This document shows, piece by piece, positions 2,633 to 64,000 of a stretch of DNA of 64,000 nt. Both the position numbers and the translations under genes were made by a program. The stretch's first letter is position 1; each line of letters opens with the position of its first letter. Under the pieces are notes generated by a model that was not told where the DNA came from, ran no database searches, and was given only the letters and a program-made list of their open reading frames with translations. Location of the stretch: assembly GCA_033763315.1 (NCBI GenBank), contig JANRKS010000019.1:257018-321017 (forward strand), written 5' to 3'. Source of the DNA: Deltaproteobacteria bacterium. GTDB taxonomy: Bacteria > Myxococcota_A > Polyangia > Fen-1088.

Positions 2633-2643
2633 CGGAGCCTCTG

Positions 2644-5635: not shown

Positions 5636-5731
5636 ACCGGTTCATCAACAAATCCCACGGATATTGCGCAGGTGGCAGAAACTTTTTGACGAAATCCTAC
5701 AAAAGGATACTTTATCCTACATGTAGTCGAC

Positions 5732-5959
5732 ATGGTGATTCACGCGATGGCGACCGGTGTCCTGATGGGAGAAACAACAATGCGCGCGTACGAACTGGGC
5801 CTGTTCAATAGTTTCGAGGACGTGGAGCGCTGCGAGCTTCGGCAGCTTGATGGGGCCTTCGTGGACGAGATGAATGGCCGTTCCAACGACGTCTTCTTCG
5901 AAGACGGACCGTTCGACGCTCTCGCCGCCGCGCCCTGGGACGACGATTCGCTGTTCTAG
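5732..5959 (+). CDS. Small acidic hypothetical protein (possibly 58 aa starting at the ATG at 5783, which has a GGGAGA RBS)
   Basis: ORF in the parA-divergent intergenic region, with a GGGAGA 7 nt before the ATG at 5783. No recognisable domain. Confidence 0.3.
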   Translation: MVIHAMATGVLMGETTMRAYELGLFNSFEDVERCELRQLDGAFVDEMNGRSNDVFFEDGPFDALAAAPWDDDSLF

Positions 5960-7005: not shown

Positions 7006-7116
7006 TACATAACATCGGGAGCGTTCGCTGGAACATGGAGACAAGAAAAGCAGGCGCCACCATTTTGGTAGGACCTGCATCGCTAGGGTGGGTGCCGCAC
7101 GCGGCCGCGCCGCGGG

Positions 7117-34521: not shown

Positions 34522-35169
34522 ATGGCGCCGGCCGTTCATCTGCAGACCACGATGACCACAGATCTCAATAAGAAAACCCTTCGTCATTTTTATTGCCGAG
34601 ACGCGCTTTGGCAGTGCTTCGAGCGCATGTCCGAAGACTTTGATCGTGGCATCGATGATCTGGTCAACGAGGCGATGCGGTTCTTTGCGCGCGAAAAGGG
34701 CTATTTGCCGACGGAGAACGACAAGCCCAGTTTGCCCACGCCGCCCCCGCGCTTGCCATCCGTGCCGCCGCCCCCGCCGGCCCCGCGCACAACCGTGCCT
34801 CGACCGGCCGTGGGCGTGACGCCGCCTCCGCGCGTGACGGCGTCGCCTCCCTTGCCTGCCGCCGCGCCCGCGCGTACCGATGTTCCGGCGCCACCGCTTT
34901 ACCTGATGTTCGATGGGCGCAAGTACCTCATCGACAAAGACCAGTTCATCATCGGGCGTGGGGCTAAAAGCTCCGATTTGCCGATCCGCGATGGCAATAT
35001 TTCGCGTAAGCACTGCGCGGTTGTTCGGCGCAATGGGGCTTACTACATCAAGGATCTGGGCTCCACCAATGGCATCGACTTCGAGGGCAACCGTGTGGAC
35101 AACCGCCGCATCGAAGAAGGTGACACGTACTACCTGTGTGACTACGAGCTGAAGTTCACGTACAAGTAG
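34522..35169 (+). CDS. FHA-domain protein
   Basis: C-terminal 'FIIGRGAKSSDLPIRDGNISRKHCAVVRRNGAYYIKDLGSTNGIDFEGNRV' FHA signature. Pro-rich linker. Confidence 0.8.
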   Translation: MAPAVHLQTTMTTDLNKKTLRHFYCRDALWQCFERMSEDFDRGIDDLVNEAMRFFAREKGYLPTENDKPSLPTPPPRLPSVPPPPPAPRTTVPRPAVGVTPPPRVTASPPLPAAAPARTDVPAPPLYLMFDGRKYLIDKDQFIIGRGAKSSDLPIRDGNISRKHCAVVRRNGAYYIKDLGSTNGIDFEGNRVDNRRIEEGDTYYLCDYELKFTYK

Positions 35170-37829: not shown

Positions 37830-38169
37830 CGGCCCGCAACCACTGCCAATAGTCCTGGCTGGCGGCTTCGGCGCCGAGCACAACCACTTCGGGCACCTCG
37901 TAGGTGTGCAGCTCGTGCAGGCGCGTCACAAGCGCGGGCAGTCGGTCGCGCTGCGTTTTGATGAGGCACAACACCTCCACGTCATGCGTCAGCTGGCCCT
38001 GCCATTCATACGTGGACGCCACACCAGGCAGGGCGTTCACGCAGGCAGCCAAGCGCTCGCGCACGAGTGTGTCTGCCAGGCTTTGCGCGGCAGCGGCCGT
38101 GGGTAGGGTGGTAAGAACGGCCACCAGATCGCCGGCGGGTACCAAGGGGGAAGCGAGGCGCGAGGGCAT
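37810..38169 (-). CDS. cutA: Divalent-cation tolerance protein CutA
   Basis: 'VPEVVVLGAEAASQDYWQWL' CutA C-terminus, about 119 aa. The ORF-track extension was trimmed. Confidence 0.75.
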   Translation of the reverse strand: MPSRLASPLVPAGDLVAVLTTLPTAAAAQSLADTLVRERLAACVNALPGVASTYEWQGQLTHDVEVLCLIKTQRDRLPALVTRLHELHTYEVPEVVVLGAEAASQDYWQWLRAATTGAL

Positions 38170-38256
38170 GGTTGTCCTTAACCGTGCAGAGTAGCAAGCG
38201 GCAACCCCCATTGGCCCGTTGACGTTCGCGCGCGGGCGCAGTACAAACCGCGACCG

Positions 38257-39483
38257 GTGCTGATCGTTCAAAAATACGGCGGAACCTCCGTAGGTTCGGT
38301 GGAGCGCATCCAAAACGTGGCCCGGCGTTGCTTGGAATCGCAACGCAAGGGGCACCGCATCGCTGTGGTGGTTTCTGCCATGTCGGGCGAGACGAACCGG
38401 CTCATCGGCCTGGCCAAGAAGATTTGCGAAGATCCCAACGAGCGCGAACTTGATGTGATCGCGTCCACCGGCGAGCAAGTGTCGGTGGGTTTGCTGGCGC
38501 TCGCCATCCAGGCCTTGGGCGGCAAAGCCAAATCGCTGTTAGGCCACCAAGTGCGTGTGCAAACAGATAGGGCATATTCGCGCGCGCGCATCCGCACGAT
38601 CGACGCACAATCGATCTTGGATGCAATGGATCGCGGCGAGATCGCCGTTGTGGCGGGCTTTCAGGGCGTCGACGATCTGGGCAACATCACAACGCTCGGT
38701 CGTGGCGGCTCGGACACTTCGGCCGTGGCTGTGGCCGCGGCTTTGAAGGCCGACGTTTGCGAGATTTACACCGACGTGGACGGCGTTTATACAGCCGACC
38801 CCAACGTGGTGACCACCGCCCGGAAGGTGGCGCGCATCAGCTACGAGGAAATGCTTGAACTGGCTTCGTTGGGCGCCAAGGTTCTGCAGATTCGCTCGGT
38901 TGAATTCGGCATGAAATACGGCGTGCCGATTCACGTTCGCTCAAGCTTCAACGACAACGAAGGAACCTGGGTCGTGCCGGAAGAAAAAGCCATGGAAAGT
39001 GTTCTTGTCTCTGGGGTAACGGCCACGAAGGACGAGGCGAAGATCACATTGGTGGGCATTGAAGATGCCACCGGGATCGCGGCCCGCGTGTTCAAGCCCT
39101 TGGCTGACGCTGGCATCGTTGTTGACGTCATCGTGCAGGCGCTTGGGTCGGACGGCAAGATCAGCCTTACGTTCACGCTTTCGAATGGTGATCTGAAGCG
39201 AGCCAAAGAGGTTCTCGTGAAGAACTGCTCGGAGCTTGTGCCGGCCGAGCGCATCTTGACGGAAAGCAACCTGTCGAAGGTTTCGATCGTCGGCGTGGGT
39301 ATGCGCTCGCACGCGGGTGTGGCGCTCAAGATGTTCGAGATCTTGTCGCAGGAGAACATCCGCATTCAGTTGATCTCCACGTCCGAGATCAAGATCTCGT
39401 GTGTCGTTGACGCCAAGTACAGTGAGCTGGCGGTGCGCGTGTTGCACGACGGCTTCAACTTGGGCGGCAAAGACGCAGGCTAA
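38257..39483 (+). CDS. lysC: Aspartate kinase
   Basis: '[12 protein letters not shown]', '[13 protein letters not shown]', and two C-terminal ACT domains. Confidence 0.9.
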
Positions 39484-39498
39484 AGCCCCCGGCGGGCC

Positions 39499-40509
39499 TC
39501 AATAGCCGAGCTGCACTTGGCGCGGTTTGCCGTATTTATCGGGCACGAATTTCAGGCGGCTGCGTTCGCTGCCAAGTGTGATCGTGGTGGCCGCCACGGT
39601 GCCGGCCTGCACCTGCAGCGGCTGGCGCGTCACATCTGACGAGCTTTCGTGCCAAGCGATCAGCTCGTAAGCGCCCGGGGGCACGCCGCGAATGGTGAAT
39701 CGCCCGCTGCTGCCCGCTTGGGCGAACCACGGGCTATCCACCACCACCACGTAGCCCAGCATCTGTGCGTGAATGTTGCAAAGCACCTGCACGGCGCCTG
39801 CGTGTGTGAAGGTCTTGCTGTAGCTGGCGCCGTCCTTGTAGAGGCCACCGTCAAAATCATTGGGGCGGCTGAGCGAGAACACGTTGTGGAAGATGGTGTC
39901 TTCGTTGTGAAAGGCCACTTTTGAGCCCAACGTCACCGGAAGAACGTGAGGGACAAACGTTTTATCCCGTTGGGTCATCTCGCGGCCCCGCAACGGTGCG
40001 GGGCGGGGCGTGGGCCCATCTTTGCGGCGCAACCATACCACCGTGCCGCCGGGGCCTAAACTGCCACCGCCTTGCACGGTGCCTTTCACACTGCCCGCTG
40101 CAACTTCGGCAGCCGCTTCCGCTTGCGGCGCGGCCGGGGTGGCGGGCGCAACGATCGGTGCCGCCGCTTCACCTCCAGCGCGTCGTCGCGCTTCGGTGGC
40201 CAAGGGGCGCACGACGCGTGCGGTTTCAGCATCCAGGCCCGCAAGCGACAGCAGGTGTTCCCATTTTTGTGCGGCCACGCCATAGCGGCCCGCATCCCAA
40301 GCCACCTTGCCACCCGCCAAAAGGTTAAACACAAGGTAAGCGCGTTCGGCCGCGGCTTTGACGGCGAGATCTTCCGGCGTGCGAACCGCCAGCGGCAGCG
40401 GCATCTCTTCACCGGCCCAGGGCACTTCCGCATTTTTCGGTTCCGCGCCGGCCGTGCTGCCGAGGCCCAAAGCCAAGGCCAGTGAGAAGGTTGTGAAGCG
40501 TTTGCTCAT
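39499..40509 (-). CDS. Secreted cupredoxin-like (type-1 copper site) protein with a carboxypeptidase-regulatory-like beta-sandwich segment
   Basis: Signal 'FSLALALGLGSTAGA'. 'FHNEDTIFHNV...VLCNIHAQM' gives a His...Cys-x2-His-x2-Met ligand pattern. 'GRFTIRGVPPGAYEL'. Confidence 0.5.
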   Translation of the reverse strand: MSKRFTTFSLALALGLGSTAGAEPKNAEVPWAGEEMPLPLAVRTPEDLAVKAAAERAYLVFNLLAGGKVAWDAGRYGVAAQKWEHLLSLAGLDAETARVVRPLATEARRRAGGEAAAPIVAPATPAAPQAEAAAEVAAGSVKGTVQGGGSLGPGGTVVWLRRKDGPTPRPAPLRGREMTQRDKTFVPHVLPVTLGSKVAFHNEDTIFHNVFSLSRPNDFDGGLYKDGASYSKTFTHAGAVQVLCNIHAQMLGYVVVVDSPWFAQAGSSGRFTIRGVPPGAYELIAWHESSSDVTRQPLQVQAGTVAATTITLGSERSRLKFVPDKYGKPRQVQLGY

Positions 40510-40519
40510 CGTCGTTTGC

Positions 40520-41827
40520 CTACCAAATGAAGACCACTGAAATGGCACGTACGTCGTTCGCCACGTTGGGGGCGCCACGGCGCTCCTGATTGAACAGCCA
40601 CTCGCCTTTGACCACCACAGATTCTGCGAGATCGAAACGAACGCCCGTTGTCAGCCGCGCCACGTCCAGCTGCGGAAAACCTTCGAAGCGCGCGCGGCGG
40701 TAACCAAGCCGCACGTAAGGCGTTGCCCTTTCCAGCCAGCGCCAAGGCAGCGCAATTGACCACGCCGCTTGCGCCCAAAAGCCGCGCGCCTCGAACTCTG
40801 AAGCCCAAAAGCGCGGCCCGAGCGGCGTCAGCTTTTCGGCGGCATCACCGTCGTCTTCTTGAACGTCAACGTATTCGCCAGACAGCGAAAGCCCGGCAAC
40901 GTATAGACGCGCGTCGGCGCCCCACAAGCGCATGCCTTTAGCGCTTTGGCGTTGATCGTTGCGCGGGCCTTGCAAAGCGCTCACGCCCAGCTTGAGCTGA
41001 AACCGCGGCAGGTTTAGCTCATAGCCCGCGCGGCCCGACAACACCGGCCGACCGGTGAGGCTGGCCGACTGTGTTTGCAGCGCTTCGATGAACGTCGGGC
41101 CATTGGTGGCGGCGACATTGATGGAAAGGGCGGACCACAACCGCGGCAGCTGCGTGCGGTAAAAGGCCTTGGCGCCCAACTGCGTGCCGGTGGTGTAGCG
41201 GGCCATCAACGATGGCGTGATGCCCGTGCGCAAGGTCGCTTGGTTGTCCAAGTACTCGATGCCAAACACCGCGTCGGCTTTGCCAATGGTCAACGCGAAT
41301 TCGTGCGAGGCAAAGGGAATGACGCGGGCGAAGGCCTGTTCGATCAGCACCTGCGTTTGTTCGCCTGTGGCCAAAAAGCGCGGCATCGCCTGCGCGCGCA
41401 CAAACACCAGGTAACTGCCATTGGCGTTCGAAGCGCGCAGATCCGCGCTGATCGTATTGAGCAAGAAAGAAGGCCGGCCCCCGATCCCTACGCTTCGGGG
41501 AACGAAGCCATTGTTGGCGGCGTTGGCGTTGGTCGAAGCGACGTCGCCGCGGCTGTTAACAGCGGGGGCGAAGGCATCCACGCCATAATCGTTTGGCACG
41601 CGCGTGTCGCCCGGGACCCAGCTGGTTCCGTTGCCTTGGGCGTCGGCGAAACCCACGTCAACGTAACCGGCCGTGACAACCGTGGGGCCGGCGGGCGTGG
41701 GTGAATACCCTTGCACGGGTTCGTCATCGTTGGCGTCACCGGTTTGGGTGGCAACGGCTTGCGCCCACAGCGCACGCGAAGGGCAAGCGCACAGCAACGC
41801 AATTGCAACCGCCGCACGCCGTCTCAT
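40520..41827 (-). CDS. Outer-membrane beta-barrel (porin-like) protein
   Basis: Signal 'AAVAIALLCACPSRALWAQA', alternating amphipathic strands, and a C-terminal '...RAISVVFIW' aromatic terminus. Confidence 0.55.
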   Translation of the reverse strand: MRRRAAVAIALLCACPSRALWAQAVATQTGDANDDEPVQGYSPTPAGPTVVTAGYVDVGFADAQGNGTSWVPGDTRVPNDYGVDAFAPAVNSRGDVASTNANAANNGFVPRSVGIGGRPSFLLNTISADLRASNANGSYLVFVRAQAMPRFLATGEQTQVLIEQAFARVIPFASHEFALTIGKADAVFGIEYLDNQATLRTGITPSLMARYTTGTQLGAKAFYRTQLPRLWSALSINVAATNGPTFIEALQTQSASLTGRPVLSGRAGYELNLPRFQLKLGVSALQGPRNDQRQSAKGMRLWGADARLYVAGLSLSGEYVDVQEDDGDAAEKLTPLGPRFWASEFEARGFWAQAAWSIALPWRWLERATPYVRLGYRRARFEGFPQLDVARLTTGVRFDLAESVVVKGEWLFNQERRGAPNVANDVRAISVVFIW

Positions 41828-43074
41828 AGGGGCGCTCCCGGAGCCGGCGCAAGCAACGGAACGGGCTGCCCTTGGTAGGTGACGAATGGACACGTCGCCG
41901 TGATCTCTGAACGCACCACTTTCGCGGGCGGGAGCCGTTCTTGAATGTGCGCCTCGCTATCCAGGAAGCGGCAAACTGTGGCCGGGATGGGTTGGGCTGG
42001 AGCTGCATTAAAGGCCAGGTTGATGGCCGCGGCGCAAGCCGCCGCATCGAGCACGGGGCGGAAGAACAAATGGGGCGCCTGCACCCCCGGGCTGGCTTCG
42101 GCTGCGGTGAGCCCACTTTCCATGATTGTCGCTATTCGCGCCGTTTGTGCGGCGGTGCTTGGCTGGGGAACCACCACGCCAGCGGTGGAGGGAAGATCCA
42201 CAAAATGCAGGCGCCAGTAAGAACCAAACGAGGGGCGGTTGTTGGGCGCCGAGCCGCTTTGCGCTGCTGGACCGCGACCGCCGACGCTTGGCAGACCACC
42301 CAGCTTCGGGCCGCTCAACGCTGTGGCCTGATGTCGAAACACGTACAGAGGATCTTCATTAACGACGCCGTTTGCGGCGAAGGTGAAACGGTCGTCGCCA
42401 AACGACACGACGCTGACGGGTTGCGAGATTCCGTCGACCCATCCTGCGCCGACACCCACGCCCCCGACGATGTTTGTTCCGAGCAGCGGGTGAAGTGGGG
42501 GAACCGGGGTGGGCAATCGAAGCTGGCCAGTGAGATCGGTGCCTGATGGTGCCAACGAGCATAAACGACCCGGGCCGGCCACCAGAGGGTAACCCGAGTC
42601 TAAAACGGCGCGCGTGGTGCGAAAGTCGGGTGTTGGCGCGCCGGGGGGCACAACCACGAAGAAGACGCGCCAATAAGGGCTGTAAAACGCGCTGTCGGCG
42701 CCCACCGAGAACACGGGGAGCGCCCCGGAAATGGGCTGGATGACGCCCTTCATCTCCTGCGCCATCACGTACATGGGCTGCACCCAAACATCAGAGAACC
42801 CTTGCCAATATTCAGTGGTGACGTAGGCCGCCGGTTCGCCATCATCAAACGCCGGAATCACATCCAACGAAAGGTTGTTTTCCATGGACAAGCGATATCG
42901 ACCCTTCATGGGCAGCCCCAGGGGTTCAACCACAGCGGACCCGGCCACAAGTTGATCTTTGATGTTGAACAAGGTCACCCACGCGGCTGTGGGGCGATCG
43001 TTTGTGCTTGTGCAGCCCACCATCGCCACGAGCGTGGCGGCCCAGAGAGGAAGTGACATCGCGCGAAGGTTCAC
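41824..43074 (-). CDS. Hypothetical lipoprotein
   Basis: Lipobox 'LVAMVGCT'. No recognised domain. 4-bp overlap with the downstream outer-membrane gene. Confidence 0.5.
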   Translation of the reverse strand: MNLRAMSLPLWAATLVAMVGCTSTNDRPTAAWVTLFNIKDQLVAGSAVVEPLGLPMKGRYRLSMENNLSLDVIPAFDDGEPAAYVTTEYWQGFSDVWVQPMYVMAQEMKGVIQPISGALPVFSVGADSAFYSPYWRVFFVVVPPGAPTPDFRTTRAVLDSGYPLVAGPGRLCSLAPSGTDLTGQLRLPTPVPPLHPLLGTNIVGGVGVGAGWVDGISQPVSVVSFGDDRFTFAANGVVNEDPLYVFRHQATALSGPKLGGLPSVGGRGPAAQSGSAPNNRPSFGSYWRLHFVDLPSTAGVVVPQPSTAAQTARIATIMESGLTAAEASPGVQAPHLFFRPVLDAAACAAAINLAFNAAPAQPIPATVCRFLDSEAHIQERLPPAKVVRSEITATCPFVTYQGQPVPLLAPAPGAPL

Positions 43075-43095
43075 GAGCGTTCTCCTGGCTGGCGT

Positions 43096-45207
43096 TTACG
43101 ACAGGTCGGTCTTGCGCGCGTCCCCGCGGGTCGGCGCTTGGTTGTGTGAAGCGGTTGGGCGTTGGCTGGTGTCGCTGGGAAGCGCGGCCGAAAACCGGCT
43201 TTCTTCTTCGTCGAACTCGCTGCGGAATAAACTTTGGATGAGCTGCGCGAGATTGACGGCGTGATTGCGCACGTGGGGCTCCACATCCGCCAAAAACGCC
43301 AGCGCGTTTGGATATCGCTGATCCGGCTGCACCATGAGGGCACGGCCCACGATGTGGTTCAGCGGTTCGGGCAGTGATGCGATTTGGGCAAGCATCGATT
43401 CGTCGGGGCCGGTGGCGGCCCGCACGAGCAGTTCGTAGGGGGTGCCACCATGATAAAGGGGCTGCCCTGCGGCGGCGTAATACATCACAAGGCCCAGCGA
43501 GAACAGGTCAGCGCGCGCATCGAGTGCCGTGCCGCGCGCTTGCTCGGGGCTCATGAAGCTGACATTGCCTTTGACCACGCCTTGCTCGGTTTGCGTCACC
43601 CGGCCTTCAGCTTTCACGATGCCGAAATCGAACAACTTCACCTCGCCGCCGGCCGAAATCAAAATGTTGCTTGGCGAAACATCGCGGTGAACCACGCCCA
43701 AAGGCCGGCCATCGTCGCCTCGGCGGTTGTGTGCGTAGTCGAGCGCCTTAAGCGTTTCTGCCATCACGTGCAAAATCACAGGCACGGACAAGGCGCGGCC
43801 TTGTGTTGCGATCGATTTGCTCACCGTGCGGCCCAGATCTCGACCGAGGATGTATTCGGTGGCTAAGTAATACTCGTCACCGACGCGGCCGAAATCAAAC
43901 ACGGGAATGATGTTGGAGTGCACCATCAACGAGCCCAGTTTTGCTTCGTCGATGAATTGCGCCACCACGCTGCTTTCGTTGGCCAGCTCGGGGCGCAACC
44001 GTTTGACCACGAACCGCCGGCGAAAGCCTTCGGCGCCAACCGTGATCGCCGTAAAAACTTGGGCCATGCCGCCTTCGCCCAACATGGACACGATGGTGTA
44101 GCGCCCAAACACACGTGAATTGCGTGCGGGAGGATCGAATGTGGCTGTGGCCGCGTACGGTGAGGGTGCGTCTTGTTCAAGCGCCACCGCGCTGCCTGAG
44201 GTGGGGGACATGCGGTTGCGTCCCATGCCTGGCGCCGTTGCGCTCATTGCCGGGGCTGGCGCTGTGGTTAAAGGCGGCGGTGTGCCCTCACTGGTCTGGG
44301 TGGCCACAGGCGCTTGCCCGCCGAGCGGCGCGCCTTGGCGGAACGCGAAGAAGATCGACAAAAACGCGAGCAAACCTGCACCAGCAAATAGGGCGCTCTT
44401 GTTGATGGTGGCCGCCTGCGCCGCCTCCGTCGCGCTGGCATGTGTGTTGGCGTAGACCCACATCCATAAGCCCGGCCCCAAGCTTCGCTTCGCGGCGGCC
44501 CATTCTCCGTGCGGGCTGGTCACAGGCGCCGCCAGCGTTTCCTGCCCCACAAGCCCGGCCATTTGCACCTGAGCCTGATCTGGCCCTGCGAGCGTCAGTG
44601 CCTTGGTGCCGTTCGACACCATCACAGCGCCACCCGCGCGGCGTGAAATCTGCTCAAGCGCGTCGTTGTTCAACGGCGCCGCCAAAATCAGCACGGCAGG
44701 CAAGCGCCGCGAGGGCAGGGAGATGCGCTCGCCCGCGGCCACCCATGCCTCGCCAGCGAAGACGAGGGTATCGGAGGCCAAGCCGCGGCTGCGCACCTTT
44801 TGAATCAAGGCGGACGCGTCCACCGTTTCGGCGCCCAAGACCAATTCGGGGCTGCGCTCGCTGAGCGACAGAACAACAACGCCAAAATCGCGGCGGAATG
44901 GCTCCCACCACACCTCGCGGTCAAACGCGTCTTTGAGTGTGGCGGTGATGCTGGAGGGGTCGTCGGCCTCGCGCAGGATCGACAAGATCTTCATGAGCTC
45001 GGGCCGGCTGCTGGCGGCGGCCACGCGTGGCTCAAGGGTGTGGAGCTGCGTGGCCAGCGCGTCTTCGAGTTTGGCCAAAGCTTGATCGGCCGCGCGCGAT
45101 GCGTCCGTCTGAGCCCGGGCGTCCCGCCGTAGATCGATGCTGGGCACCGAGGCCGCCGCGGCTCCCAGCGCTGCCAGCGCAACGAGCACGCCCAAGAATC
45201 GCTTCAC
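43096..45207 (-). CDS. Receptor-like Ser/Thr protein kinase: signal peptide, ~290-aa periplasmic domain, TM helix, C-terminal Hanks kinase domain
   Basis: Kinase motifs 'LGEGGMAQVF', 'VVKRL', 'HRDVSPSNILI', 'DFG' and 'SPEQ' lie in the C-terminal 300 aa. TM 'ALFAGAGLLAFLSIFFAF'. Confidence 0.8.
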   Translation of the reverse strand: MKRFLGVLVALAALGAAAASVPSIDLRRDARAQTDASRAADQALAKLEDALATQLHTLEPRVAAASSRPELMKILSILREADDPSSITATLKDAFDREVWWEPFRRDFGVVVLSLSERSPELVLGAETVDASALIQKVRSRGLASDTLVFAGEAWVAAGERISLPSRRLPAVLILAAPLNNDALEQISRRAGGAVMVSNGTKALTLAGPDQAQVQMAGLVGQETLAAPVTSPHGEWAAAKRSLGPGLWMWVYANTHASATEAAQAATINKSALFAGAGLLAFLSIFFAFRQGAPLGGQAPVATQTSEGTPPPLTTAPAPAMSATAPGMGRNRMSPTSGSAVALEQDAPSPYAATATFDPPARNSRVFGRYTIVSMLGEGGMAQVFTAITVGAEGFRRRFVVKRLRPELANESSVVAQFIDEAKLGSLMVHSNIIPVFDFGRVGDEYYLATEYILGRDLGRTVSKSIATQGRALSVPVILHVMAETLKALDYAHNRRGDDGRPLGVVHRDVSPSNILISAGGEVKLFDFGIVKAEGRVTQTEQGVVKGNVSFMSPEQARGTALDARADLFSLGLVMYYAAAGQPLYHGGTPYELLVRAATGPDESMLAQIASLPEPLNHIVGRALMVQPDQRYPNALAFLADVEPHVRNHAVNLAQLIQSLFRSEFDEEESRFSAALPSDTSQRPTASHNQAPTRGDARKTDLS

Positions 45208-45289
45208 AGCCGCGGATCTTCCTCTTTGTGCGGCCCCGCGTCAACCACGCTGTTGGCACGGGGCCCCGGTGCCTCTGGCGCGATGTAGG

Positions 45290-46399
45290 TTAAGGCGCGC
45301 CGAACGTGGTTTCGCCCTCGCTGACGAGGTTCTGCGCGTCGGGCGACAACGTCATCCAGCCTGCGGTGAACTCGCTGCGCGCGAAGGTTTGCACCGGTGA
45401 GGGGGCGGCGCCCGCTGTGCCTGCTTCGCCGCCAGAGCGACCGAGATCGAGCCATCCCACCAGTTTGTTGCGATACAGGTACTCAATGCGCACCACAACT
45501 TTGGGCTCACCAGCCGCGGGCTTTTCGCCTTTGCCCAATACCTCTGCCGGGAACAGCGCGAACACGCGCTCATGCCAGTTGCCGGCGGTTTGGTCGGGCT
45601 TATCGGGAGCGGATGCGGGAAGCAGTTCACCACCCGGACGGCCGTCGAAGCGGCGGAATTGAAACTCCTTCTTCTTGCCGCTGGCTGTGATCACCACTTT
45701 ATCGACGTCGGCCATGATGAAGCCGTGCAACTTGCGCTGGGTCATGTTGGTTCGCGCGGCCTGAAAGTCAGATAGGATCTGACGAGCCACGATGTAAACC
45801 ATGCCGTCTTCGTCGTCGCGCACGTAGGGATCCGTGCCGCCTGGAGGCGCCGGGGCCAAGGTGAAGGTTTTTGTTACGCCCTTGAAGGTGACCTTCAAGC
45901 GCTTTTTGGGCTGATCAAGACCCAGGTCTTTGACCTTTTCAGCGTCAAGCTTGCCAAGGGCGCGTGAAGCGGAAAACGGCGAAAACAGATCCCACATTTT
46001 TTCGGCGCTCTCGTTGCCGCGCACCAGCCGTTCGGGCACCGCTGTTTGCACCATCGGGTGGCCCGACGGTAAGGCGACGTTCGAGCCTTCTTTGCCCGCG
46101 AGCCGCATCCACACAGCGCGACCCGCGTCTTCCTTCGTGCTTGTGAGCTCAACCCAATCGCGCACCTTCGGTTCGGCCGGCGCCGGCGCGTCCTTAGGTT
46201 TGGCGTTTTTGTCGTCCGCCTCGGGCTTGGCCACAGGCTCAAGCTCTTCGTAGCGAATGCTTTGCAATTCGCCTTTGGTGATGTCGAGAATGTAGGCTTG
46301 GCCATTGTCGAGCGAGGGCTCGCGTTGCCATGTGAAATAGGCGGCGATCAATCCCGCCAGGGCCAGCAATCCCTGAGTGGTGGCGGCTCGGCGGTTCAT
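45290..46399 (-). CDS. DUF4340-like protein (partner of GldG-type ABC auxiliary proteins)
   Basis: N-terminal TM anchor; composition and length match DUF4340. 4-bp overlap with gldG-like. Confidence 0.55.
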   Translation of the reverse strand: MNRRAATTQGLLALAGLIAAYFTWQREPSLDNGQAYILDITKGELQSIRYEELEPVAKPEADDKNAKPKDAPAPAEPKVRDWVELTSTKEDAGRAVWMRLAGKEGSNVALPSGHPMVQTAVPERLVRGNESAEKMWDLFSPFSASRALGKLDAEKVKDLGLDQPKKRLKVTFKGVTKTFTLAPAPPGGTDPYVRDDEDGMVYIVARQILSDFQAARTNMTQRKLHGFIMADVDKVVITASGKKKEFQFRRFDGRPGGELLPASAPDKPDQTAGNWHERVFALFPAEVLGKGEKPAAGEPKVVVRIEYLYRNKLVGWLDLGRSGGEAGTAGAAPSPVQTFARSEFTAGWMTLSPDAQNLVSEGETTFGAP

Positions 46400-48321
46400 T
46401 GTGAATCCTCCTGCTTGGCAACGGCATTCGTCGCCGGGGGCGCTTGCGGGGGCTCGGCTTTCGTCACGGCCTTGCGTGCCTTGCGGCTGCGGCGTGTGAA
46501 CAGCAACCCGAAACCCACAACCAGCGCCGGTGCCAGAACAACGCTGCCATAAAACCAGCCCAAGTCTTGTTTGCGGGTATGCACGATGGGCACGTCTTCT
46601 TCGTTGTTGATGCGTCCAGAAATGCTCTCTTCGCCGCCCAGCCAGCGCACGGCATCGACGAACATCGCAGCGTTGCCTTGGTTGCGCACAGCCAGATCGG
46701 TCAGCGCATCCGAATCGGCCAGCACAACCGCGCGGCCTTCTTCTTCAGGCAATACGGCGCTGGCCGTGCGTTTGGTTACCACCGCTGCCAACTCATAAGC
46801 GCGACGAACTTCCGTGCCGCTGTCGAACTCGAAATTCCCGTTCACGTCATTCCACGTCTTGGCGTCGGCGTGAATCGTGAAGCGACGGTTGACGAGGCCA
46901 CCGGGATCGGTGCCGTTGTCCAGCGAGCCGGTTGTGGGAAACACCACGGGCAAGCGGCGCCCGTACTTTGACAGGGTGGTGACCGCCACGTGCGACGAGT
47001 AATTCGCGGAAATGAGGTTCACCCGATCTGATGTGGCGAATGTGCGGGTGGCGTAGATCTGGTCATGCGCCAAATTTGTGGTGCTGAATGTTAAGCCCAA
47101 GTGGTTCAGCAGGTTGTCGAACTTTTGGCCGGACTCCGGATCCAACGCCAACAACACACGTCCCTTCCGATCGATGTAGCGTTCGATCGACGTGGCTTCT
47201 TCAGGGCTAAAAGGCTCCTTCGGGCCGATCACCATGACGATCGTGGCATCATCGGGCACAGCAGACCCCAGCCCATCGGCCAAGCCCAAATCGCGCACTT
47301 CGTAACCTTGGTCCAACAGCAAGCCACGAATGAGGCCAATCGTGTCGCGCTTGTCTGTGTCGCCCATGCTGCTGGGCGAGCGTTCGCCGTGGCCTTGGGT
47401 GAGGTAGGCCACGCGCGCGGCGCGGGTAACCCCCAGAAGGCGTTTGTTCACTTCTTCATCCAAGCGCTTGAGTTGATCGCGTGCGCGTTCCATCTCAAGC
47501 GGAATGGCGATCTGTTCGCGCAGCTTGTCGCGGCCCACCACGATGATGCCGTTGCCGCTGACGCCAAGCTCTTTGGCTTTGGCTGGATTGATGGCCTGAT
47601 CGTAAGTTTCAACCACCAGAAGCTTGGACTTTTGCTTCAAGTCGTCGAAGTAACTTTCGACCTCCTCGTGCACTTCGTTGGCCGGCGGAAAGAACAGGTA
47701 AACCTGAACAGGCTTGTCGAGGGCGGCCACGATCTTGAGCGTGCTTTCGCCACCTTTGGCCACGCGGAAGTAGGAAAGATCCTTTTTCACGTCGCGCTCG
47801 GACGCCACGAAAGCGAACGAGAACACGAACACCAGGGCGAATCCGATGCCCAACCCGGACGTCATCGCGGCGCGCACGCGCGGCAGGTCACGCACCGGGG
47901 CGCGGGCCATGCTGGCCAACGACAATTCAACAAAGACCACCGGTAAAGTGCCCAACACCAAACACGCAGGCCATAGCGTTTCCAATACGGCAGCCACGCG
48001 GGGCCACGTTTTCTGCAACGTGTGGCCCGTGAGATGGAAATAGACGTCGGACGAGAAGAAATAGGCCAGCAACGCCACGGCGCCCAGCGCATAGAGCGTG
48101 AGCAACGCCTTTTCCGGTCCTCGATGGGCAGAGTCGCGTTTGCCGAGGCGGGCCGCTTGCCAACCCGCACCTGCGACCACGGCGAGAACGCCGGCCACCG
48201 TGGCGACGATGGACGCCGGGCCGCTGGTCAGCAGCCGCTCGCCCACGAACACCAAAATCAACCCTGCGCCGTAGGTCAGCGAGGGCAGTGCCGAATACGC
48301 TTGTTTGCTTGCTAACGCCAT
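46396..48321 (-). CDS. GldG-family ABC-transporter auxiliary component
   Basis: Several N-terminal TM helices, a large periplasmic domain and a C-terminal TM. Sits in a gldA/gldF-like context. Confidence 0.65.
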   Translation of the reverse strand: MALASKQAYSALPSLTYGAGLILVFVGERLLTSGPASIVATVAGVLAVVAGAGWQAARLGKRDSAHRGPEKALLTLYALGAVALLAYFFSSDVYFHLTGHTLQKTWPRVAAVLETLWPACLVLGTLPVVFVELSLASMARAPVRDLPRVRAAMTSGLGIGFALVFVFSFAFVASERDVKKDLSYFRVAKGGESTLKIVAALDKPVQVYLFFPPANEVHEEVESYFDDLKQKSKLLVVETYDQAINPAKAKELGVSGNGIIVVGRDKLREQIAIPLEMERARDQLKRLDEEVNKRLLGVTRAARVAYLTQGHGERSPSSMGDTDKRDTIGLIRGLLLDQGYEVRDLGLADGLGSAVPDDATIVMVIGPKEPFSPEEATSIERYIDRKGRVLLALDPESGQKFDNLLNHLGLTFSTTNLAHDQIYATRTFATSDRVNLISANYSSHVAVTTLSKYGRRLPVVFPTTGSLDNGTDPGGLVNRRFTIHADAKTWNDVNGNFEFDSGTEVRRAYELAAVVTKRTASAVLPEEEGRAVVLADSDALTDLAVRNQGNAAMFVDAVRWLGGEESISGRINNEEDVPIVHTRKQDLGWFYGSVVLAPALVVGFGLLFTRRSRKARKAVTKAEPPQAPPATNAVAKQEDSQ

Positions 48322-49037
48322 CGTCGGGCCTCCAGCACGCGCGTGGCGGCGAACAACGAGAAATAGATCAAGCCCAGGTAATACACGATGTCTCGCAGGT
48401 GAATCACGCCTCGGCCAAACGGCGTAAAGTGTTTATGAAACAAGGCGATCGACAGGAAGAACTCACTGAACGGCCGTTCGGTCACGCGCGCCAACATCCA
48501 GGCCATCAACAGCACCGACACGAGCACCGCTGAGATGATGATGGCGAGCACTTGGTTCTTGCCAATCGCCGAGCCAAACGTGCCTATCGCCAAGGTTGAA
48601 CCGCCCAACAACATGAGTCCCATGTAGCCGGCGGCCAGGTGGCCCCAGGAGATCTTGCCGTTGACCAAGATCATCAGCGGCACGTAAAGCGTCGCCAAGA
48701 TCATCAACCACAAAAACACCAGCGCGCCGATGTATTTGCCCAAGATGATCTCGCGATCGCGCACGGGTGAAGAAGCCAAAAGCGCGATGGTGCCCGTTTG
48801 CTTTTCTTCGGCCAACAGGCGCATCGAAAGCACCAAACTGCAGATCATGGTGGCGCCACTTGTGAAAAAGAAGAAGTTGTAGAGCACCTCGGCTGAACGG
48901 CGTTCCGATTCACCCATCGCCATGGCGTGGAACAAGATGCCCACCGACAACAAGAAAATGCTGGCGATCACGTAGCCGCTCATCGATCGGAAATAGGCGC
49001 CAAGCTCACGCAGCGCGATCAGTTTTACGTTCTTCAT
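48312..49037 (-). CDS. ABC-2 type permease (GldF-like)
   Basis: Six TM helices, 241 aa. Start overlaps the ATPase stop. Confidence 0.75.
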   Translation of the reverse strand: MKNVKLIALRELGAYFRSMSGYVIASIFLLSVGILFHAMAMGESERRSAEVLYNFFFFTSGATMICSLVLSMRLLAEEKQTGTIALLASSPVRDREIILGKYIGALVFLWLMILATLYVPLMILVNGKISWGHLAAGYMGLMLLGGSTLAIGTFGSAIGKNQVLAIIISAVLVSVLLMAWMLARVTERPFSEFFLSIALFHKHFTPFGRGVIHLRDIVYYLGLIYFSLFAATRVLEARRWR

Positions 49038-50023
49038 CAGGGGCTCCCCGGGGGCGTTGGCGCCGACGCTTGTGCTTGCGTGGGCTTATCGGCTGGCGCT
49101 TCACCCGCCGCCAATTTCAGGAACACGGACTCTAGGCGCGACGCCGCACGTCCCATTTGAAGCAGGTCAACCCCCGCGCCCACCAAGGCGCGGGCCAGCT
49201 GTGGCCGCAAGTCGGCGGTGGAACTGACCCGCAACGTGAATTCATCGCCGGACGTGTGAACGACCGTTACGCTGTTCACACCGGTGACGGCTTGCAGGCA
49301 CAACGTGGCCGCACCCAGATCGCCCTTGAGCGTGAAGTCAGCTTCGCCTGCGCGTTCCATCAACGTCGCCAGTTCAGACTCGGTGCCGCGTGCCACGATT
49401 TGCCCGCCCTGGATCACCAGCAAGCGATCGCAGGTTTGGCTGATTTCTGCCAAGAAGTGGCTTGAGATCAGCAGGGTATGCTCACCTCGCAGGCCGCGGA
49501 TGAGGTTGCGCATCTCAACGATCTGAACGGGGTCAAGGCCGCTTGTGGGTTCGTCCAAGATCAACAGCGATGGCTTGTGCACCAAAGCTTGTGCCAAGCC
49601 CACGCGTTGCCGGTAGCCGTGAGACAGCGCGCTGATAAGCTCGTCGTCCACATCCACAAGCCCCGTTTTCTCCTCAGCTTCGGCGACGCGCTTTTGCGCA
49701 TCAACCGCACTGACGCCGCGCAATTGAGCGGCGAACGATAGATAACGGCCCACCGTCATCTCGTTATAAAGGGGCGGCGTGTCGGGCAGAAAACCGATCC
49801 TGCCGCGCACTTCGTGGGCTTGGTCAACGGCGTTTAGGCCATCCACCATCACGGTGCCTGAGGTTGGTAACAGCACGCAGCTCAGGATCTTCAATGTGGT
49901 GCTTTTTCCGGCACCATTGAGCCCCAAAAACCCGACGACCTCACCCGATTCGATATCGAAATCGAGGTCGCGAATCGCTGCATGCTCCCCGTAATACTTC
50001 GTCAATCCGCGAACTTGAATCAT
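49037..50023 (-). CDS. ABC transporter ATP-binding protein (GldA-like)
   Basis: Walker A 'GLNGAGKST'; signature 'LSHGYRQRV'; Walker B 'LLILDEPTSGLD'. Confidence 0.9.
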   Translation of the reverse strand: MIQVRGLTKYYGEHAAIRDLDFDIESGEVVGFLGLNGAGKSTTLKILSCVLLPTSGTVMVDGLNAVDQAHEVRGRIGFLPDTPPLYNEMTVGRYLSFAAQLRGVSAVDAQKRVAEAEEKTGLVDVDDELISALSHGYRQRVGLAQALVHKPSLLILDEPTSGLDPVQIVEMRNLIRGLRGEHTLLISSHFLAEISQTCDRLLVIQGGQIVARGTESELATLMERAGEADFTLKGDLGAATLCLQAVTGVNSVTVVHTSGDEFTLRVSSTADLRPQLARALVGAGVDLLQMGRAASRLESVFLKLAAGEAPADKPTQAQASAPTPPGSP

Positions 50024-50056
50024 GGGAAAGCCGTTTACATATAACCCAAAACCACT

Positions 50057-51220
50057 TTGAACCTCTATACTTCAATCAAGGCGGTGCGGAAAAGCCAACT
50101 TCATAGCCGGGCGGTTTATTCCCGCTTGTGCAAAAAAGCGGGCGCGCTGGCTTGCGGGCTGGCCCTGGCTGCCTGTGGCGCCAGCAAACCGCCTTCTGTG
50201 GATGCCGGCCCCCTCGGCATCGAAATCGCCTTTCCGGACGGCGGCGAGCGCCAATACTGTGGAGAGGCCAGCCGGCAGCTGGTGGTGAACCCCCGGGTGG
50301 TGGATGTATTGGTGCTGTTTGACCGATCGGGATCGATGTCTTTGGCTTTCGGCGACAGCACGCGCTTCGAGGTGGAGCAGCAACTGCTGCAGGGCTTGCT
50401 CAACGCTTACCAAAGCCGGATTCGCTTCGGTTTTGCACCCTTTCCGTCAAAGGGTGGCTGTGCCGATGCGGGGCCCGCCGCCTGTTGCACCGACCCGCCT
50501 TCAGTGGCTGTGAATTACATGTCGGCGGCTGACATCGGCAACGCCATCGCTGACGCGGCCCCCGTGGATGGCAACACGCCTACGGCGCAAGCGTTGATGG
50601 CGGCACGCGATTATTTCTTGGGGCTCAACGATGGCGTGATTGAACGGTACGTGCTGTTGTCGACCGATGGGCAGCCAAGTTGCACGGCCTCGGGGGAGTT
50701 GGCCAAGGATGTGATTCGCTCGGGCCAGCGGCAACAAGGTCCGTGCTCGGACGCGCTGGCCGCCGTTAAGGCGCTGGCCGACATCAACGTAAAAGTGTTC
50801 GTGTTAGGGATCGGCGCTGATCTGGCGCTGGGCGAGCAGGGCGCTCCCAGCTGCCTGGAAGAATTGGCCCGCGCTGGTGGTGCCGCCACGCGCGCGTCGC
50901 CTTCGTTTTATTCGGCCGCGGATCCGAAGACGCTCAACGCCTCGCTGCAAGCGATCTTCGGCGCCGTGACAAAACCATCCTGCACGCTCACTTTCAACAT
51001 GCCCGCGCCCGATGAGAACAACGTGCTGGTGCTGTTTGACGGCGTGCCGGTGCCACGCGATCAGCGCCGCGAAGACGGGTGGGGGTGGTTGCCACAAAAG
51101 GCGGGCTTGTCCCTGCAGGTTTACGGACCGGCCTGTGCGCGGTTGGAAAGCCTGCAGGTATCGGAGGTGAAGATTCTTTACGGGTGCCGCCCCTGCACCA
51201 CGCCTGGCTCCTGCCAATAG
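50057..51220 (+). CDS. Cys-rich von Willebrand factor A (VWA) domain lipoprotein; the start is ambiguous between 50057 and 50126
   Basis: Lipobox 'LALAAC'. MIDAS 'DRSGSMS', 'STDGQP'. About 16 Cys, including 'CADAGPAACCTDPP'. Confidence 0.65.
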   Translation: MNLYTSIKAVRKSQLHSRAVYSRLCKKAGALACGLALAACGASKPPSVDAGPLGIEIAFPDGGERQYCGEASRQLVVNPRVVDVLVLFDRSGSMSLAFGDSTRFEVEQQLLQGLLNAYQSRIRFGFAPFPSKGGCADAGPAACCTDPPSVAVNYMSAADIGNAIADAAPVDGNTPTAQALMAARDYFLGLNDGVIERYVLLSTDGQPSCTASGELAKDVIRSGQRQQGPCSDALAAVKALADINVKVFVLGIGADLALGEQGAPSCLEELARAGGAATRASPSFYSAADPKTLNASLQAIFGAVTKPSCTLTFNMPAPDENNVLVLFDGVPVPRDQRREDGWGWLPQKAGLSLQVYGPACARLESLQVSEVKILYGCRPCTTPGSCQ

Positions 51221-51224
51221 CCGC

Positions 51225-52301
51225 TTAGACTTCGGTAAGCCAGCCGAACTTATCCTCGGCGTGGCCATACTGAATGTCGGTGATGGCCTTGAATAGTTTT
51301 TGGGAGAGGTCTCCGGGCTGACCCGTGCCCACGGCGAAGCGCTGATCTTTCCAGCCCAGCTCACCCACGGGCGAAATGACGGCTCCCGTGCCGGTGCCGA
51401 ACACTTCGGTAAGCTGGCCTTTGCGCTGCGCAGACAGCAACTCTTCAACGGTGATGCGGCGTTCGTTCACCGTCATGCCCCAGCTGCGCAAAAGGTCGAT
51501 GACGCTCGCGCGCGTGACGCCTGAAAGTATGGTTCCGGTGAGCGCGGGCGTGGCCACTTCATCGCCGATGCGCACGAATAAATTCATCGTGCCCACTTCT
51601 TCAAGGGCCGCATGCTCGATCGCGTCCGTCCACAGCACTTGCGCAAACCCAGCCGCTTTCGCTTCTTCAGCGGCCATCAAGCTGGCGGCGTAGTTGGCGC
51701 CCGCTTTGACGGCGCCCAGACCACCGGGTGCCGCGCGCACGTATTTGTCTTCAATGCGGATGCTCACCGGGCCAAAGCCCTCTGCGTAGTAAGCGCCCAC
51801 TGGCGAGTTGATGATGAAGAACTGGTATTGCTTTGCGGGCCGCACGCCCAAGAAAGCTTCGCTCGCAAAAATCGTGGGGCGAATGTAAAGCGCCGTGCCG
51901 GGCGAGGACGGGATCCACGCTTCGTCTGCGGACACAATCGACTTGATCGCTTCAGCGATGAGTTCGGGATCGATGTCGGGCATCGACATGCGCTTGGCGC
52001 CTTCAGCCAAGCGCGCCGCGTGGCGGGGCAGGCGAAAGATGCGGATCTTGCCATCAACGCCCCGATAAGCCTTGAGGCCATCGAACAACGTTTGCGCATA
52101 GTGAATGCCCGCGGCCGCGGGATCCATGGGCAACGTCTCGTAGGGCACGATGCGGCCGTTGTGCCAGCCGGCGTCGCCTTTGTAGTCGAGCAGCAGCATG
52201 TGGTCCGCGAAAACGGTGCCGAACTTCAGAGCGGAATCAACCGGACGGGTTCGGGGCGTGGTCGTTCGTGTGACTGGAAATTTCGCGGATGAGAAAGACA
52301 T
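51225..52301 (-). CDS. ilvE: Branched-chain amino acid aminotransferase
   Basis: Class-IV aminotransferase 'FGTVFADHM', 'YIRPTIF', 'VRAAPGGLGAVKAGANYA'. Confidence 0.85.
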   Translation of the reverse strand: MSFSSAKFPVTRTTTPRTRPVDSALKFGTVFADHMLLLDYKGDAGWHNGRIVPYETLPMDPAAAGIHYAQTLFDGLKAYRGVDGKIRIFRLPRHAARLAEGAKRMSMPDIDPELIAEAIKSIVSADEAWIPSSPGTALYIRPTIFASEAFLGVRPAKQYQFFIINSPVGAYYAEGFGPVSIRIEDKYVRAAPGGLGAVKAGANYAASLMAAEEAKAAGFAQVLWTDAIEHAALEEVGTMNLFVRIGDEVATPALTGTILSGVTRASVIDLLRSWGMTVNERRITVEELLSAQRKGQLTEVFGTGTGAVISPVGELGWKDQRFAVGTGQPGDLSQKLFKAITDIQYGHAEDKFGWLTEV

Positions 52302-58686: not shown

Positions 58687-58785
58687 CGGGCACGCATTAT
58701 GGCCGCTTGGTATCGCCCTGCCACGCTTGCTTGCTGTATGGGCGAATTGCACGCGAGCCGCGGGAAAAAATGCCTAATCGATGCG

Positions 58786-63688: not shown

Positions 63689-63852
63689 TTGGTGCCCGCT
63701 ATCCCTATGCGACGAGGGGGACCCAGCCCCCTGGAATTTCCTCGTCAGTTTGCGCCAAAGCTTGAACCACGTGTGACCTGGGTGGACTGGGACGCGTCGT
63801 CCGCCTGCGGGTGGGTAGGCACAGCGGGGATATCGTGATAGTTCGACCCACC

Positions 63853-64000
63853 ATGCTTTGCCTCGCGCTTCGATCGTTTCTTTGGGCCTCGTTGCTGGCA
63901 CCCTTCATCACCGGCCAGCCTCAGGCCGCGAGCGCGGGGGCCGTTGCCGCGTTTGCGCCGGCCGAGGCGGCGCCCGGTACCTTTTGCACCGCCGCGCGGC
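63853..64000 (+). CDS. 5' fragment of a secreted protein (runs off the window end)
   Basis: ATG followed by 'MLCLALRSFLWASLLAPFITGQPQAASAGA', a signal-peptide-like sequence. There is no stop before the window end. Confidence 0.3.
   Translation, partial: MLCLALRSFLWASLLAPFITGQPQAASAGAVAAFAPAEAAPGTFCTAAR

Follow-up and report, generated by a model that had tools for sequence, protein, structure and literature searches.

A minus-strand array of eight genes from a Polyangia genome with a GldAFG-like ABC exporter, a predicted Cache-type receptor kinase and a possible blue-copper co-sensor

We analyzed a stretch of 64,000 nucleotides (the window) from contig JANRKS010000019.1 of a Deltaproteobacteria bacterium assembly (Polyangia), in which eight co-directional genes occupy positions 39499-50023 of the minus strand. 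The genes, numbered g1 to g8, encode an ABC transporter ATPase, an ABC-2 family permease, a GldG-like accessory protein, a DUF4340 protein, a receptor Ser/Thr kinase, a lipoprotein, a predicted outer-membrane beta-barrel and a secreted cupredoxin. All eight open reading frames (ORFs) lie where the original prediction, made from the DNA letters, had placed them, and the identities it had given them were upheld by Pfam, NCBIfam and orthologue comparison. The window has a G+C content of about 62%, and its closest database match is a metagenome-assembled genome (MAG) labelled Deltaproteobacteria bacterium, locus tag SF187_15565. We fetched 122 related loci (given below as L numbers) and used tblastn to map the eight proteins of the window onto them; all are uncultured MAGs or metagenome contigs of Myxococcota (Polyangia), and many are phylogenetically close, so that counts of loci are not counts of independent events. 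The array very probably consists of three modules, A (g1-g4), K (the kinase g5) and T (g6-g8), with the kinase as their hub, because the kinase lies beside A in one large clade, beside T in others and beside both in some lineages.

The gaps between the genes had been put at no more than 83 bp, with three overlaps; the first figure holds, the largest gap being 82 bp, while we counted four overlaps. With the start of g6 taken as 43059, the junctions from g1 to g8 are -1, -10, -4, +82, +36, -4 and +10 bp. The g6 start could be 43074 or 43059, and an AGGAG motif 7 nt before the GTG at 43074 favors the former. From orthologues and signal peptides, the starts of g7 and g8 were revised to 41827 and 40509, respectively. 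Terminator-like hairpins were no commoner than in shuffled sequences (14 found against 18 expected), an Rfam scan of positions 38000-51500 matched no family, and a generic promoter and terminator scan returned nothing above chance, missing the conserved kinase promoter described below. A convergent aspartate kinase gene flanks the array on one side. On the other side, a VWA-domain gene (50057-51220, plus strand) diverges from g1 over an AT-rich intergenic region; it was kept in the A-K-T loci L001, L003 and L009 and was undetected in the other loci of the tblastn screen. Archaeal GldG-like (DUF4350) proteins have been reported to co-occur with vWA proteins (Makarova et al. 2015, PMC5898192).

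The genes of module A resemble a Gld-type ABC system. The GldA-like ATPase g1 (49037-50023, minus strand) matched PF00005 at 110.7 bits, and its best NCBIfam match was GldA TIGR03522 at 266.5 bits, under the cut-off of 402.6; its orthologues (59-82% identity) lie upstream of the kinase in the A-K and A-K-T loci. The GldF-like permease g2 (48312-49037, minus strand), whose start shares 1 nt with the g1 stop (TGATG), matched PF12679 and other ABC2_membrane families, with GldF TIGR03518 as its best NCBIfam match (116.9 bits, under the cut-off of 288.5). The GldG-like protein g3 (46396-48321, minus strand; ABC_transp_aux/DUF4350/DUF7088) matched PF09822 at 51.8 bits, over a cut-off of 34.7. Its translation has hydrophobic segments that form an N-terminal extension with several helices and a C-terminal transmembrane (TM) segment; NCBIfam gave no GldG equivalog match at E<=0.01, and no solved relative was found. 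Overlapping g3 by 4 bp, g4 (45290-46399, minus strand) encodes a DUF4340 protein with an N-terminal membrane anchor (PF14238, 33.9 bits, cut-off 25) and stands immediately upstream of the kinase in 43 loci (5 A-K-T, 19 A-K without T and 19 classed as A-K?). The best-supported reading of g1-g4 is a GldAFG-like ABC-2 exporter, to which no substrate is assigned. It should not be filed as Gld, because every Gld equivalog cut-off was missed and the host does not belong to Bacteroidota. No gld or type IX secretion system (T9SS) genes were seen among the 28 window ORFs scanned, several large ORFs in the 1-25 kb part lying outside the scan. We also considered a NosDFYL-type assembly of a copper cofactor for module A and rejected it, as the best matches were GldA and GldF and neither NosD nor NosL was seen.

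The kinase gene g5 (43096-45207, minus strand) encodes a Ser/Thr kinase domain at aa 366-650, with the Pfam Pkinase family matching aa 370-632 at 114.3 bits. Ahead of this domain are a first TM segment (TM1), a double-Cache-like sensor at about aa 23-265 (nt 44413-45141), a second TM segment (TM2) at about aa 268-288 and a disordered linker at aa 290-365. An AlphaFold2 model built on 30 orthologues had a pLDDT above 90 over residues 1-290 and placed, in order, a helix at 2-66 (TM1 and stalk), a five-strand alpha/beta module, a four-strand alpha/beta module and a helix at 256-289 (stalk and TM2), followed by the disordered linker at 290-365 and the kinase domain. The structure prediction that had been called for thus gave the periplasmic domain claimed for the kinase the order of elements expected of a double-Cache sensor. 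In an hhalign comparison, the profile of the g5 sensor region aligned to bona fide dCache_3 sensors at 92% probability (E 6.7e-7, 184 columns), and CHASE4, a Cache-clan family, matched weakly in 6 of 18 g5 orthologues (best E 0.0016, under the cut-off). A search of the sensor profile against sequences of the Protein Data Bank (PDB) found no match. We predict from the model and the profile that the g5 sensor is a double-Cache domain.

The receptor topology of g5 had been described as a signal peptide, a periplasmic domain, a TM helix and a C-terminal kinase. The last three elements stood up to analysis, but the N-terminal hydrophobic segment was modelled as one helix with the sensor stalk. This segment is therefore most likely TM1 of a Cache-type receptor with two TM helices, and a signal peptide that is cleaved off is the less likely reading, although an AxA-like site in the N-terminus leaves cleavage possible. 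A two-TM sensor of the histidine-kinase type is a better comparison for g5 than a single-pass eukaryotic receptor. In a published census, Ser/Thr kinase fusions were found in 25 of 15,569 dCache_1 proteins and in none of 529 CHASE4 proteins (PMC4822843), and the claim of an unusual kinase topology stands because fusions of Cache to Ser/Thr kinase are rare in that census.

The catalytic residues of g5 are conserved: the beta3 lysine (K402), the alphaC glutamate (E421), the HRD aspartate (D509), the catalytic asparagine (N514) and the DFG aspartate (D527) show no change across 30 sequences. In the catalytic loop the sequence is HRDVSPSN and not HRDxKxxN, and HRDVSP[SNAG]N was found in 120 of 120 relatives. 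We regard the lysine-to-serine change as a lineage trait, because the window's other kinase, an ordinary protein with an N-terminal kinase domain (58786-60426), has the same variant. The possibility that g5 is a pseudokinase, raised by this change, was rejected, the other catalytic residues being invariant and the variant being present in that ordinary kinase. The closest solved kinase domain is that of PknB (Foldseek E 3.5e-17), and NF033483 matched at 221 bits. Relatives gathered with the full-length g5 query numbered more than 599 at E<1e-60, and the top 120 are 631-740 aa long with 84-100% query coverage.

The ordinary kinase just mentioned belongs to a second co-directional array (56443-63901, minus strand), which encodes a CarboxypepD_reg protein (517 aa), a FecR-like protein (642 aa), the Hanks kinase (546 aa, catalytic loop HRDVSPGN) and a 769-aa protein without a Pfam match. 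Some 8 kb from g5, a gene for an FHA-domain protein, a phosphothreonine reader (34522-35169, plus strand), lies just upstream of a sulfatase-HEAT gene (35175-37829, plus strand), and this neighborhood is syntenic in L001, L002 and L007. The FHA protein is a possible partner of a Hanks kinase.

Module T begins with the lipoprotein gene g6 (41824-43074, minus strand), whose product belongs to an orphan family. Among 30 homologues the lipobox cysteine hardly varies, and in a subset of 11 sequences it does not vary at all; C-terminal cysteines are conserved as well. Homologues amounted to 32 proteins among 5.8 billion clusters, all from Myxococcota, and to 32 genome loci, all from Polyangia/Myxococcales MAGs; the locus search used the 11-sequence alignment, the 30-sequence alignment being too diverse. 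Pfam, PDB sequence and PDB profile searches gave no relative. The AlphaFold2 model of g6 (mc358e358a855) has a pLDDT of 90.4 and a pTM of 0.88, and Foldseek found no fold match for it in the PDB (best E 0.2, TM <0.1). The protein may represent a new fold restricted to Myxococcota.

The g6 and g7 genes overlap by an ATGA. The g7 product (40520-41827, minus strand) is predicted to be an outer-membrane beta-barrel of the BBP2/OmpL-like porin type, with a signal peptide and a C-terminal ...VFIW; BBP2 matched weakly in 10 of 13 orthologues, always below threshold, and OMP_b-brl and Porin_O_P matches were also obtained. The last gene, g8 (39499-40509, minus strand), encodes a secreted cupredoxin that is extended by helices at the N-terminus and by a CarboxypepD_reg-like Ig domain at the C-terminus. 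Its copper ligands H208, C244, H247 and M250, encoded at about 39760-39888, align through the pattern H...C-x2-H-x2-M to amicyanin and to the cupredoxin domain of nitrite reductase, and they are invariant in 30 orthologues and 12 cross-phylum homologues. The Pfam Copper-bind score of 18.7 bits is just under the cut-off of 21.2, and g8 is predicted to be a type-1 (blue) copper protein. Both g7 and g8 are much better conserved (52-59% identity, for g7 across most Polyangia loci) than g6 (27-35%). No CXXCH motif occurs in g6, g7 or g8.

In the gap between g4 and g5 we identified a sigma-70-like promoter (45216-45244, minus strand) with a -35 box TTGACG at 45239-45244, a 17-nt spacer and a -10-like hexamer GAAGAT at 45216-45221, which ends 8 nt before the kinase GTG (45205-45207). 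Five A-K-T loci share the sequence GGTTGACG without any change, in contrast to the remainder of the 82-bp gap, which diverges. We then surveyed all loci with a recognizable kinase start, dereplicating the upstream regions at 80% identity. Of the 46 dereplicated loci, 43 carried TTGAC at positions -38 to -35 relative to the kinase GTG, and the spacer was 17 nt in all but one of these 43. Where the window has GAAGAT, the -10 box elsewhere is AAGAAT or AACAAT, followed by 6-8 nt to the GTG, and the information content upstream of the kinase peaks at the two boxes only. L118, in which the kinase gene comes immediately after a cupredoxin gene, lacks the motif. The kinase is probably transcribed from a promoter of its own, apart from A: the fixed-distance promoter in 43 of 46 loci argues that K, together with T, is transcribed separately from A. 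The geometry further predicts that the transcript would start at or beside the GTG, giving a leaderless or near-leaderless GTG-initiated mRNA in Polyangia. A hairpin after the g4 stop was considered as a terminator and rejected (z -1.17; missing from the shorter gaps of L001 and L043). The original prediction had allowed that internal promoters or terminators might split the array; a conserved promoter was found by computation, and an excess of terminators was not.

The arrangement of the modules in relatives is variable. The full A-K-T order is present in the window and in L001, L003, L009, L043 and L047. Another 19 loci are A-K with no T within at least 1.5 kb downstream, to which is added L040 with an inserted glycoside hydrolase gene; 18 loci are K-T with no A within at least 1.5 kb upstream; and a further 19 loci, each with 3 kb or more of sequence upstream, have T by itself. 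In one contig of 2.76 Mb the A-K locus L040 and the T-alone locus L011 are about 700 kb apart. The linkage on which the array was first proposed is therefore real in five further loci and missing in its full form from most relatives. Without exception, the kinase gene of the A-K class is followed by one for a TPR/Glyco_trans_1_2 protein (46 loci; L040-L042 and L049-L121), about 610-630 aa where complete; the window encodes no homologue of it. There are signs in the gene layout that K and T are co-expressed: in the K-T loci L010, L098, L100 and L106 the ORF of the kinase overlaps that of g6 by 4 bp, and the two modules stay adjacent when rearranged, with T before K in L038 and a paralogous module (T') before K in L107, L118 and L120. 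In a neighbor-joining tree of the kinases the window falls in a clade with the other A-K-T loci, the A-K class forms a crown clade and the K-T-only kinases of L036 and L038 branch deepest. In L003 and L014, g8 is displaced 2-6 kb downstream of g7, with glycosyltransferase genes in between in L003.

The g8 family extends far beyond Polyangia. An exhaustive phmmer search gave 12,596 cluster representatives at E<=1e-3, most of them 200-250 aa long and covering the cupredoxin and Ig-like domains only; they are annotated 'methylamine utilization protein', 'plastocyanin' or 'hypothetical'. We inspected seven cupredoxin contexts outside Polyangia, and in six of them a g8-like protein of 200-240 aa directly precedes or overlaps a double-Cache receptor. 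On an unbinned metagenome contig, a 228-aa g8 homologue is followed after 2 bp by a 929-aa CHASE4-HAMP-Pkinase protein (the CHASE4 match being faint), and this g8-like protein clusters at >=90% identity with proteins of Thermoanaerobaculia MAGs. A 237-aa homologue in L123 overlaps a 936-aa HAMP-Pkinase protein. On plasmids of Comamonas, Burkholderia, Caballeronia and Novosphingobium, a 'methylamine utilization protein' is followed within 4-34 bp by a dCache_3-HAMP-GGDEF-EAL protein. The remaining homologue, on Sinorhizobium pSymA (27-31% identity), lies in an SCO/cbb3 oxidase context with no receptor. The sensors of these cross-phylum receptors are those matched by the g5 sensor profile. The cupredoxin and the sensor thus stay paired while the output varies between a Ser/Thr kinase and cyclic di-GMP (c-di-GMP) enzymes, and therefore the pairing bears the signature of an input partner.

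Variants of the unit share a redox theme. A paralogous module lies upstream of a kinase of the same family in L118 (5498-11926), L120 (~950-7280) and L107 (56-4250). Three genes come before the kinase in L118 and L120. One encodes a di-haem lipoprotein of the MauG/CCP-like type, which has two CXXCH motifs and sits where g6 does in the window; the others encode paralogues of g7 (28% identity, E 1e-32) and of g8 (41% identity; motifs FHNVFS and CNIHSKM). The L107 contig starts inside the barrel gene, so that the barrel and cupredoxin paralogues are seen and any lipoprotein gene would lie off the contig. A relationship between g6 and the MauG-like lipoprotein of L118 was rejected for want of any similarity. 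In cultured Proteobacteria, a cluster of DUF3034, haemoglobin, cupredoxin and receptor genes was found in L125 (4494-8821, a Burkholderia plasmid), L129 (Caballeronia) and L126 (Novosphingobium); the genes for the group-1 truncated haemoglobin and DUF3034 adjoin the cupredoxin gene on the same strand in Burkholderiaceae and divergently in Novosphingobium. Comamonas (L124) has DUF4394 in place of the DUF3034 and haemoglobin genes. The Burkholderia haemoglobin carries a signal peptide and a lipobox-like motif, and its DUF3034 protein, which has a signal peptide and a C-terminal phenylalanine, would be an outer-membrane protein. Homology of g7 to DUF3034 was rejected (0.4% probability), and the two are analogous at most. 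In L003 (14885-16444), L004 (9362-9919) and the locus of P0020, AhpC/Redoxin genes adjoin T or a displaced g8. Taken by their gene content, these loci point to a recurring set of a barrel, a lipoprotein that often contains haem, a type-1 copper protein and a double-Cache receptor.

We propose, at a probability of about 0.5, that the array is a composite of two adjacent units in which g8 serves as a blue-copper co-sensor of g5. The first unit (g1-g4) would be an ABC-2 exporter with two periplasm-facing accessories, the GldG-like and DUF4340 proteins. The second (g5-g8) would be a signalling unit that starts at its own promoter in the g4-g5 gap. Within it, g8 would dock on the Cache domain of g5 and report the redox or copper state, much as LuxP does for LuxQ or TorT for TorS, and the odds that g8 has such a co-sensor role are about even. 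The porin g7 and the lipoprotein g6 would form the outer-membrane end of the input branch, admitting or presenting the stimulus. The kinase would then phosphorylate cytoplasmic targets, the neighboring exporter being a candidate. The adjacency of A and K in 43 loci suggests that the exporter, or the TPR-glycosyltransferase protein in other lineages, is under kinase control. The sequences themselves establish the identities of the genes, their modularity, the conserved promoter motif, the conserved copper ligands, the neighboring positions of cupredoxin and Cache-receptor genes in several phyla and the homology of the sensor domains. We infer that g8 touches the kinase, what kind of signal is read, a complex of g6 with g7 and, as pure inference, control of the exporter by the kinase, which we consider doubtful. 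The module had been suggested to serve sensing or secretion across both membranes; the sensing part has gained strength, while a single secretion apparatus across both membranes is not supported.

Several observations weigh against this two-unit proposal, which is built wholly on gene neighborhood and prediction. In most Polyangia, namely the A-K class, the cupredoxin is unlinked to the kinase; some T loci have no receptor nearby, and in the window itself g8 lies three genes downstream of the kinase and not directly beside it. The Sinorhizobium context indicates that some members of the g8 family are not co-sensors. The g5 sensor reaches the threshold of no Pfam Cache family, and g6 has no haem or metal motif and no invariant histidine. 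As for the separate transcription of the second unit, the -10 hexamer of the window (GAAGAT) is weak, the site went unreported by the generic promoter scan and, with no significant terminator in the g4-g5 gap, read-through from g4 is possible.

The same evidence can be read in other ways. The eight genes could form one operon for a single trans-envelope conduit, Lpt-like or Mtr-like, made up of the inner-membrane ABC exporter, the GldG-like and DUF4340 proteins in the periplasm and the porin with its lipoprotein in the outer membrane, with the kinase and the cupredoxin as built-in regulators. Such a machine would account for the single strand, the gaps of no more than 82 bp, the four overlaps and the lack of a terminator excess; the full order also persists in five other loci, down to 34% identity in g6, and the ATGA-coupled barrel and lipoprotein resemble, by analogy only, LptD-LptE. 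We nevertheless find it improbable. A and T lie apart in most relatives, at about 700 kb on one contig, 18 K-T loci lack A, and in 46 loci of the A-K class the slot after the kinase is taken by the TPR/glycosyltransferase gene. A conserved promoter separates g4 from g5, and the T-like modules of other phyla go with receptors and not with ABC systems. Even less credible is the view that the adjacency of A, K and T is inherited synteny with no functional coupling. It takes the divergent VWA gene, as common to all A-K-T loci, for a sign of one ancestral arrangement, and it is helped by the common neighborhood of the T-alone loci, which leaves many loci non-independent. The adjacency, however, holds at 30-50% protein identity and survives rearrangement (T-K in L038, T'-K in L118 and L120, the inserted gene in L040), and unrelated phyla show the same pairing of cupredoxin with receptor.

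A less remote alternative, though one we still judge unlikely, is that T is an autonomous redox or copper module, for oxidant detoxification, copper trafficking or electron conduction, which the kinase regulates or with which it is merely co-expressed, the cupredoxin making no contact with the sensor. T does occur alone in the 19 loci given above, AhpC/Redoxin genes accompany T or a displaced g8, and in L118 and L120 g6 gives way to the MauG/CCP-like di-haem lipoprotein. The type-1 copper site is indicative of electron transfer, and the Sinorhizobium g8 homologue is encoded beside SCO and cbb3 oxidase genes. What this alternative leaves unexplained is the translational coupling of short g8 homologues to Cache receptors with varied outputs in several phyla, and why those receptors have the sensor type of g5. 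The absence of CXXCH from g6, g7 and g8 also means that T is not a multihaem conduit.

Beyond the window, the co-sensor proposal can be extended to the whole g8 family, which would then be a widespread and so far undescribed class of periplasmic blue-copper co-sensors gating one type of double-Cache receptor, usually together with an outer-membrane barrel and a lipoprotein that contains haem in some lineages. The output would be a Ser/Thr kinase in Myxococcota and at least one other lineage, provisionally Acidobacteriota, and c-di-GMP in Proteobacteria, and the Polyangia unit would be a form with an orphan-fold lipoprotein that is wired through its kinase to a GldAFG-like exporter. We offer this generalization tentatively. 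The ligands of Cache-family receptors are largely unknown, and the few bacterial Ser/Thr kinases that have an extracytoplasmic Cache sensor are uncharacterized. A blue-copper input partner would be a new bacterial way to read periplasmic redox state, oxidants or copper, and a very large family that now stands under a misleading annotation would gain a testable function. The plasmids of Burkholderia, Caballeronia, Comamonas and Novosphingobium, with a cupredoxin gene beside one for a dCache_3-GGDEF-EAL protein, make the idea testable in culture. It would also provide a first regulatory lead for GldAFG-like exporters, since ABC systems of the GldG/DUF4340 type are widespread and have no known substrate.

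The components of the array are of known kinds, and their combination, especially the pairing of a cupredoxin with a double-Cache receptor, appears to be undescribed. In the searchable literature we found nothing relevant on DUF4340, on a cupredoxin with CarboxypepD_reg or on a 'methylamine utilization protein' with a diguanylate cyclase, and a search for DUF3034 with truncated haemoglobin returned no paper that mentions DUF3034. The closest counterpart of module A is the GldA/GldF/GldG system of Flavobacterium johnsoniae (TIGR03522, TIGR03518, TIGR03521; PF09822), which likewise joins an ABC-2 permease to its ATPase and to a large accessory protein, GldG there and the GldG-like g3 here; neither system has a known substrate. 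The Gld host belongs to Bacteroidota, whereas the array host is a Myxococcota MAG, as are the hosts of all relatives; in addition, g3 has extra N-terminal TM helices, and genes for a DUF4340 protein and a receptor kinase follow in the array. Of the Hanks receptor kinases, PknB/Stk1 has the closest kinase domain and shares with g5 a disordered juxtamembrane linker. The order in g5 is reversed, with the sensor first and the kinase at the C-terminus; its sensor is double-Cache-like where that of PknB is PASTA, and its catalytic loop reads HRDVSPSN instead of HRDxKxxN.

For module T, LptD-LptE and MtrCAB offer an analogy only, in that the genes for the barrel and the lipoprotein are coupled in translation and a periplasmic redox protein is encoded next to them. 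Unlike MtrCAB, g6, g7 and g8 have no CXXCH and so contain no multihaem cytochrome; in contrast to LptD and MtrB, g7 is closer to BBP2/OmpL porins, and g6 has no detectable relative of known fold. The mau cluster provides another comparison, as g8 has the amicyanin-like H...C-x2-H-x2-M, its homologues carry the RefSeq name 'methylamine utilization protein' and a di-haem protein of the MauG/CCP family is encoded within the unit in L118 and L120. The array differs from that cluster in having no methylamine dehydrogenase genes, g8 has an additional Ig-like domain and a helical N-terminal extension, and the genes that accompany it encode receptors, a porin and a lipoprotein.

The proposed role of g8 is best compared with LuxP-LuxQ and TorT-TorS, in which sensors with Cache-like periplasmic domains depend on an accessory protein. 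The periplasmic domain family of LuxQ (LuxQ-periplasm) belongs to the Cache clan (PMC4822843). As in those systems, a gene for a secreted periplasmic protein lies beside that for a two-TM receptor with a Cache-superfamily sensor, and the partner gene stays with the receptor across taxa (six of the seven contexts outside Polyangia and the Polyangia K-T loci) while the output varies. In contrast to LuxP and TorT, g8 is a cupredoxin of the type-1 copper kind and not a protein of the periplasmic binding protein fold, and its complex with g5 is hypothetical. Compared to LuxQ and TorS, the output of g5 is a Hanks Ser/Thr kinase without HAMP, and the unit includes a porin and a lipoprotein.

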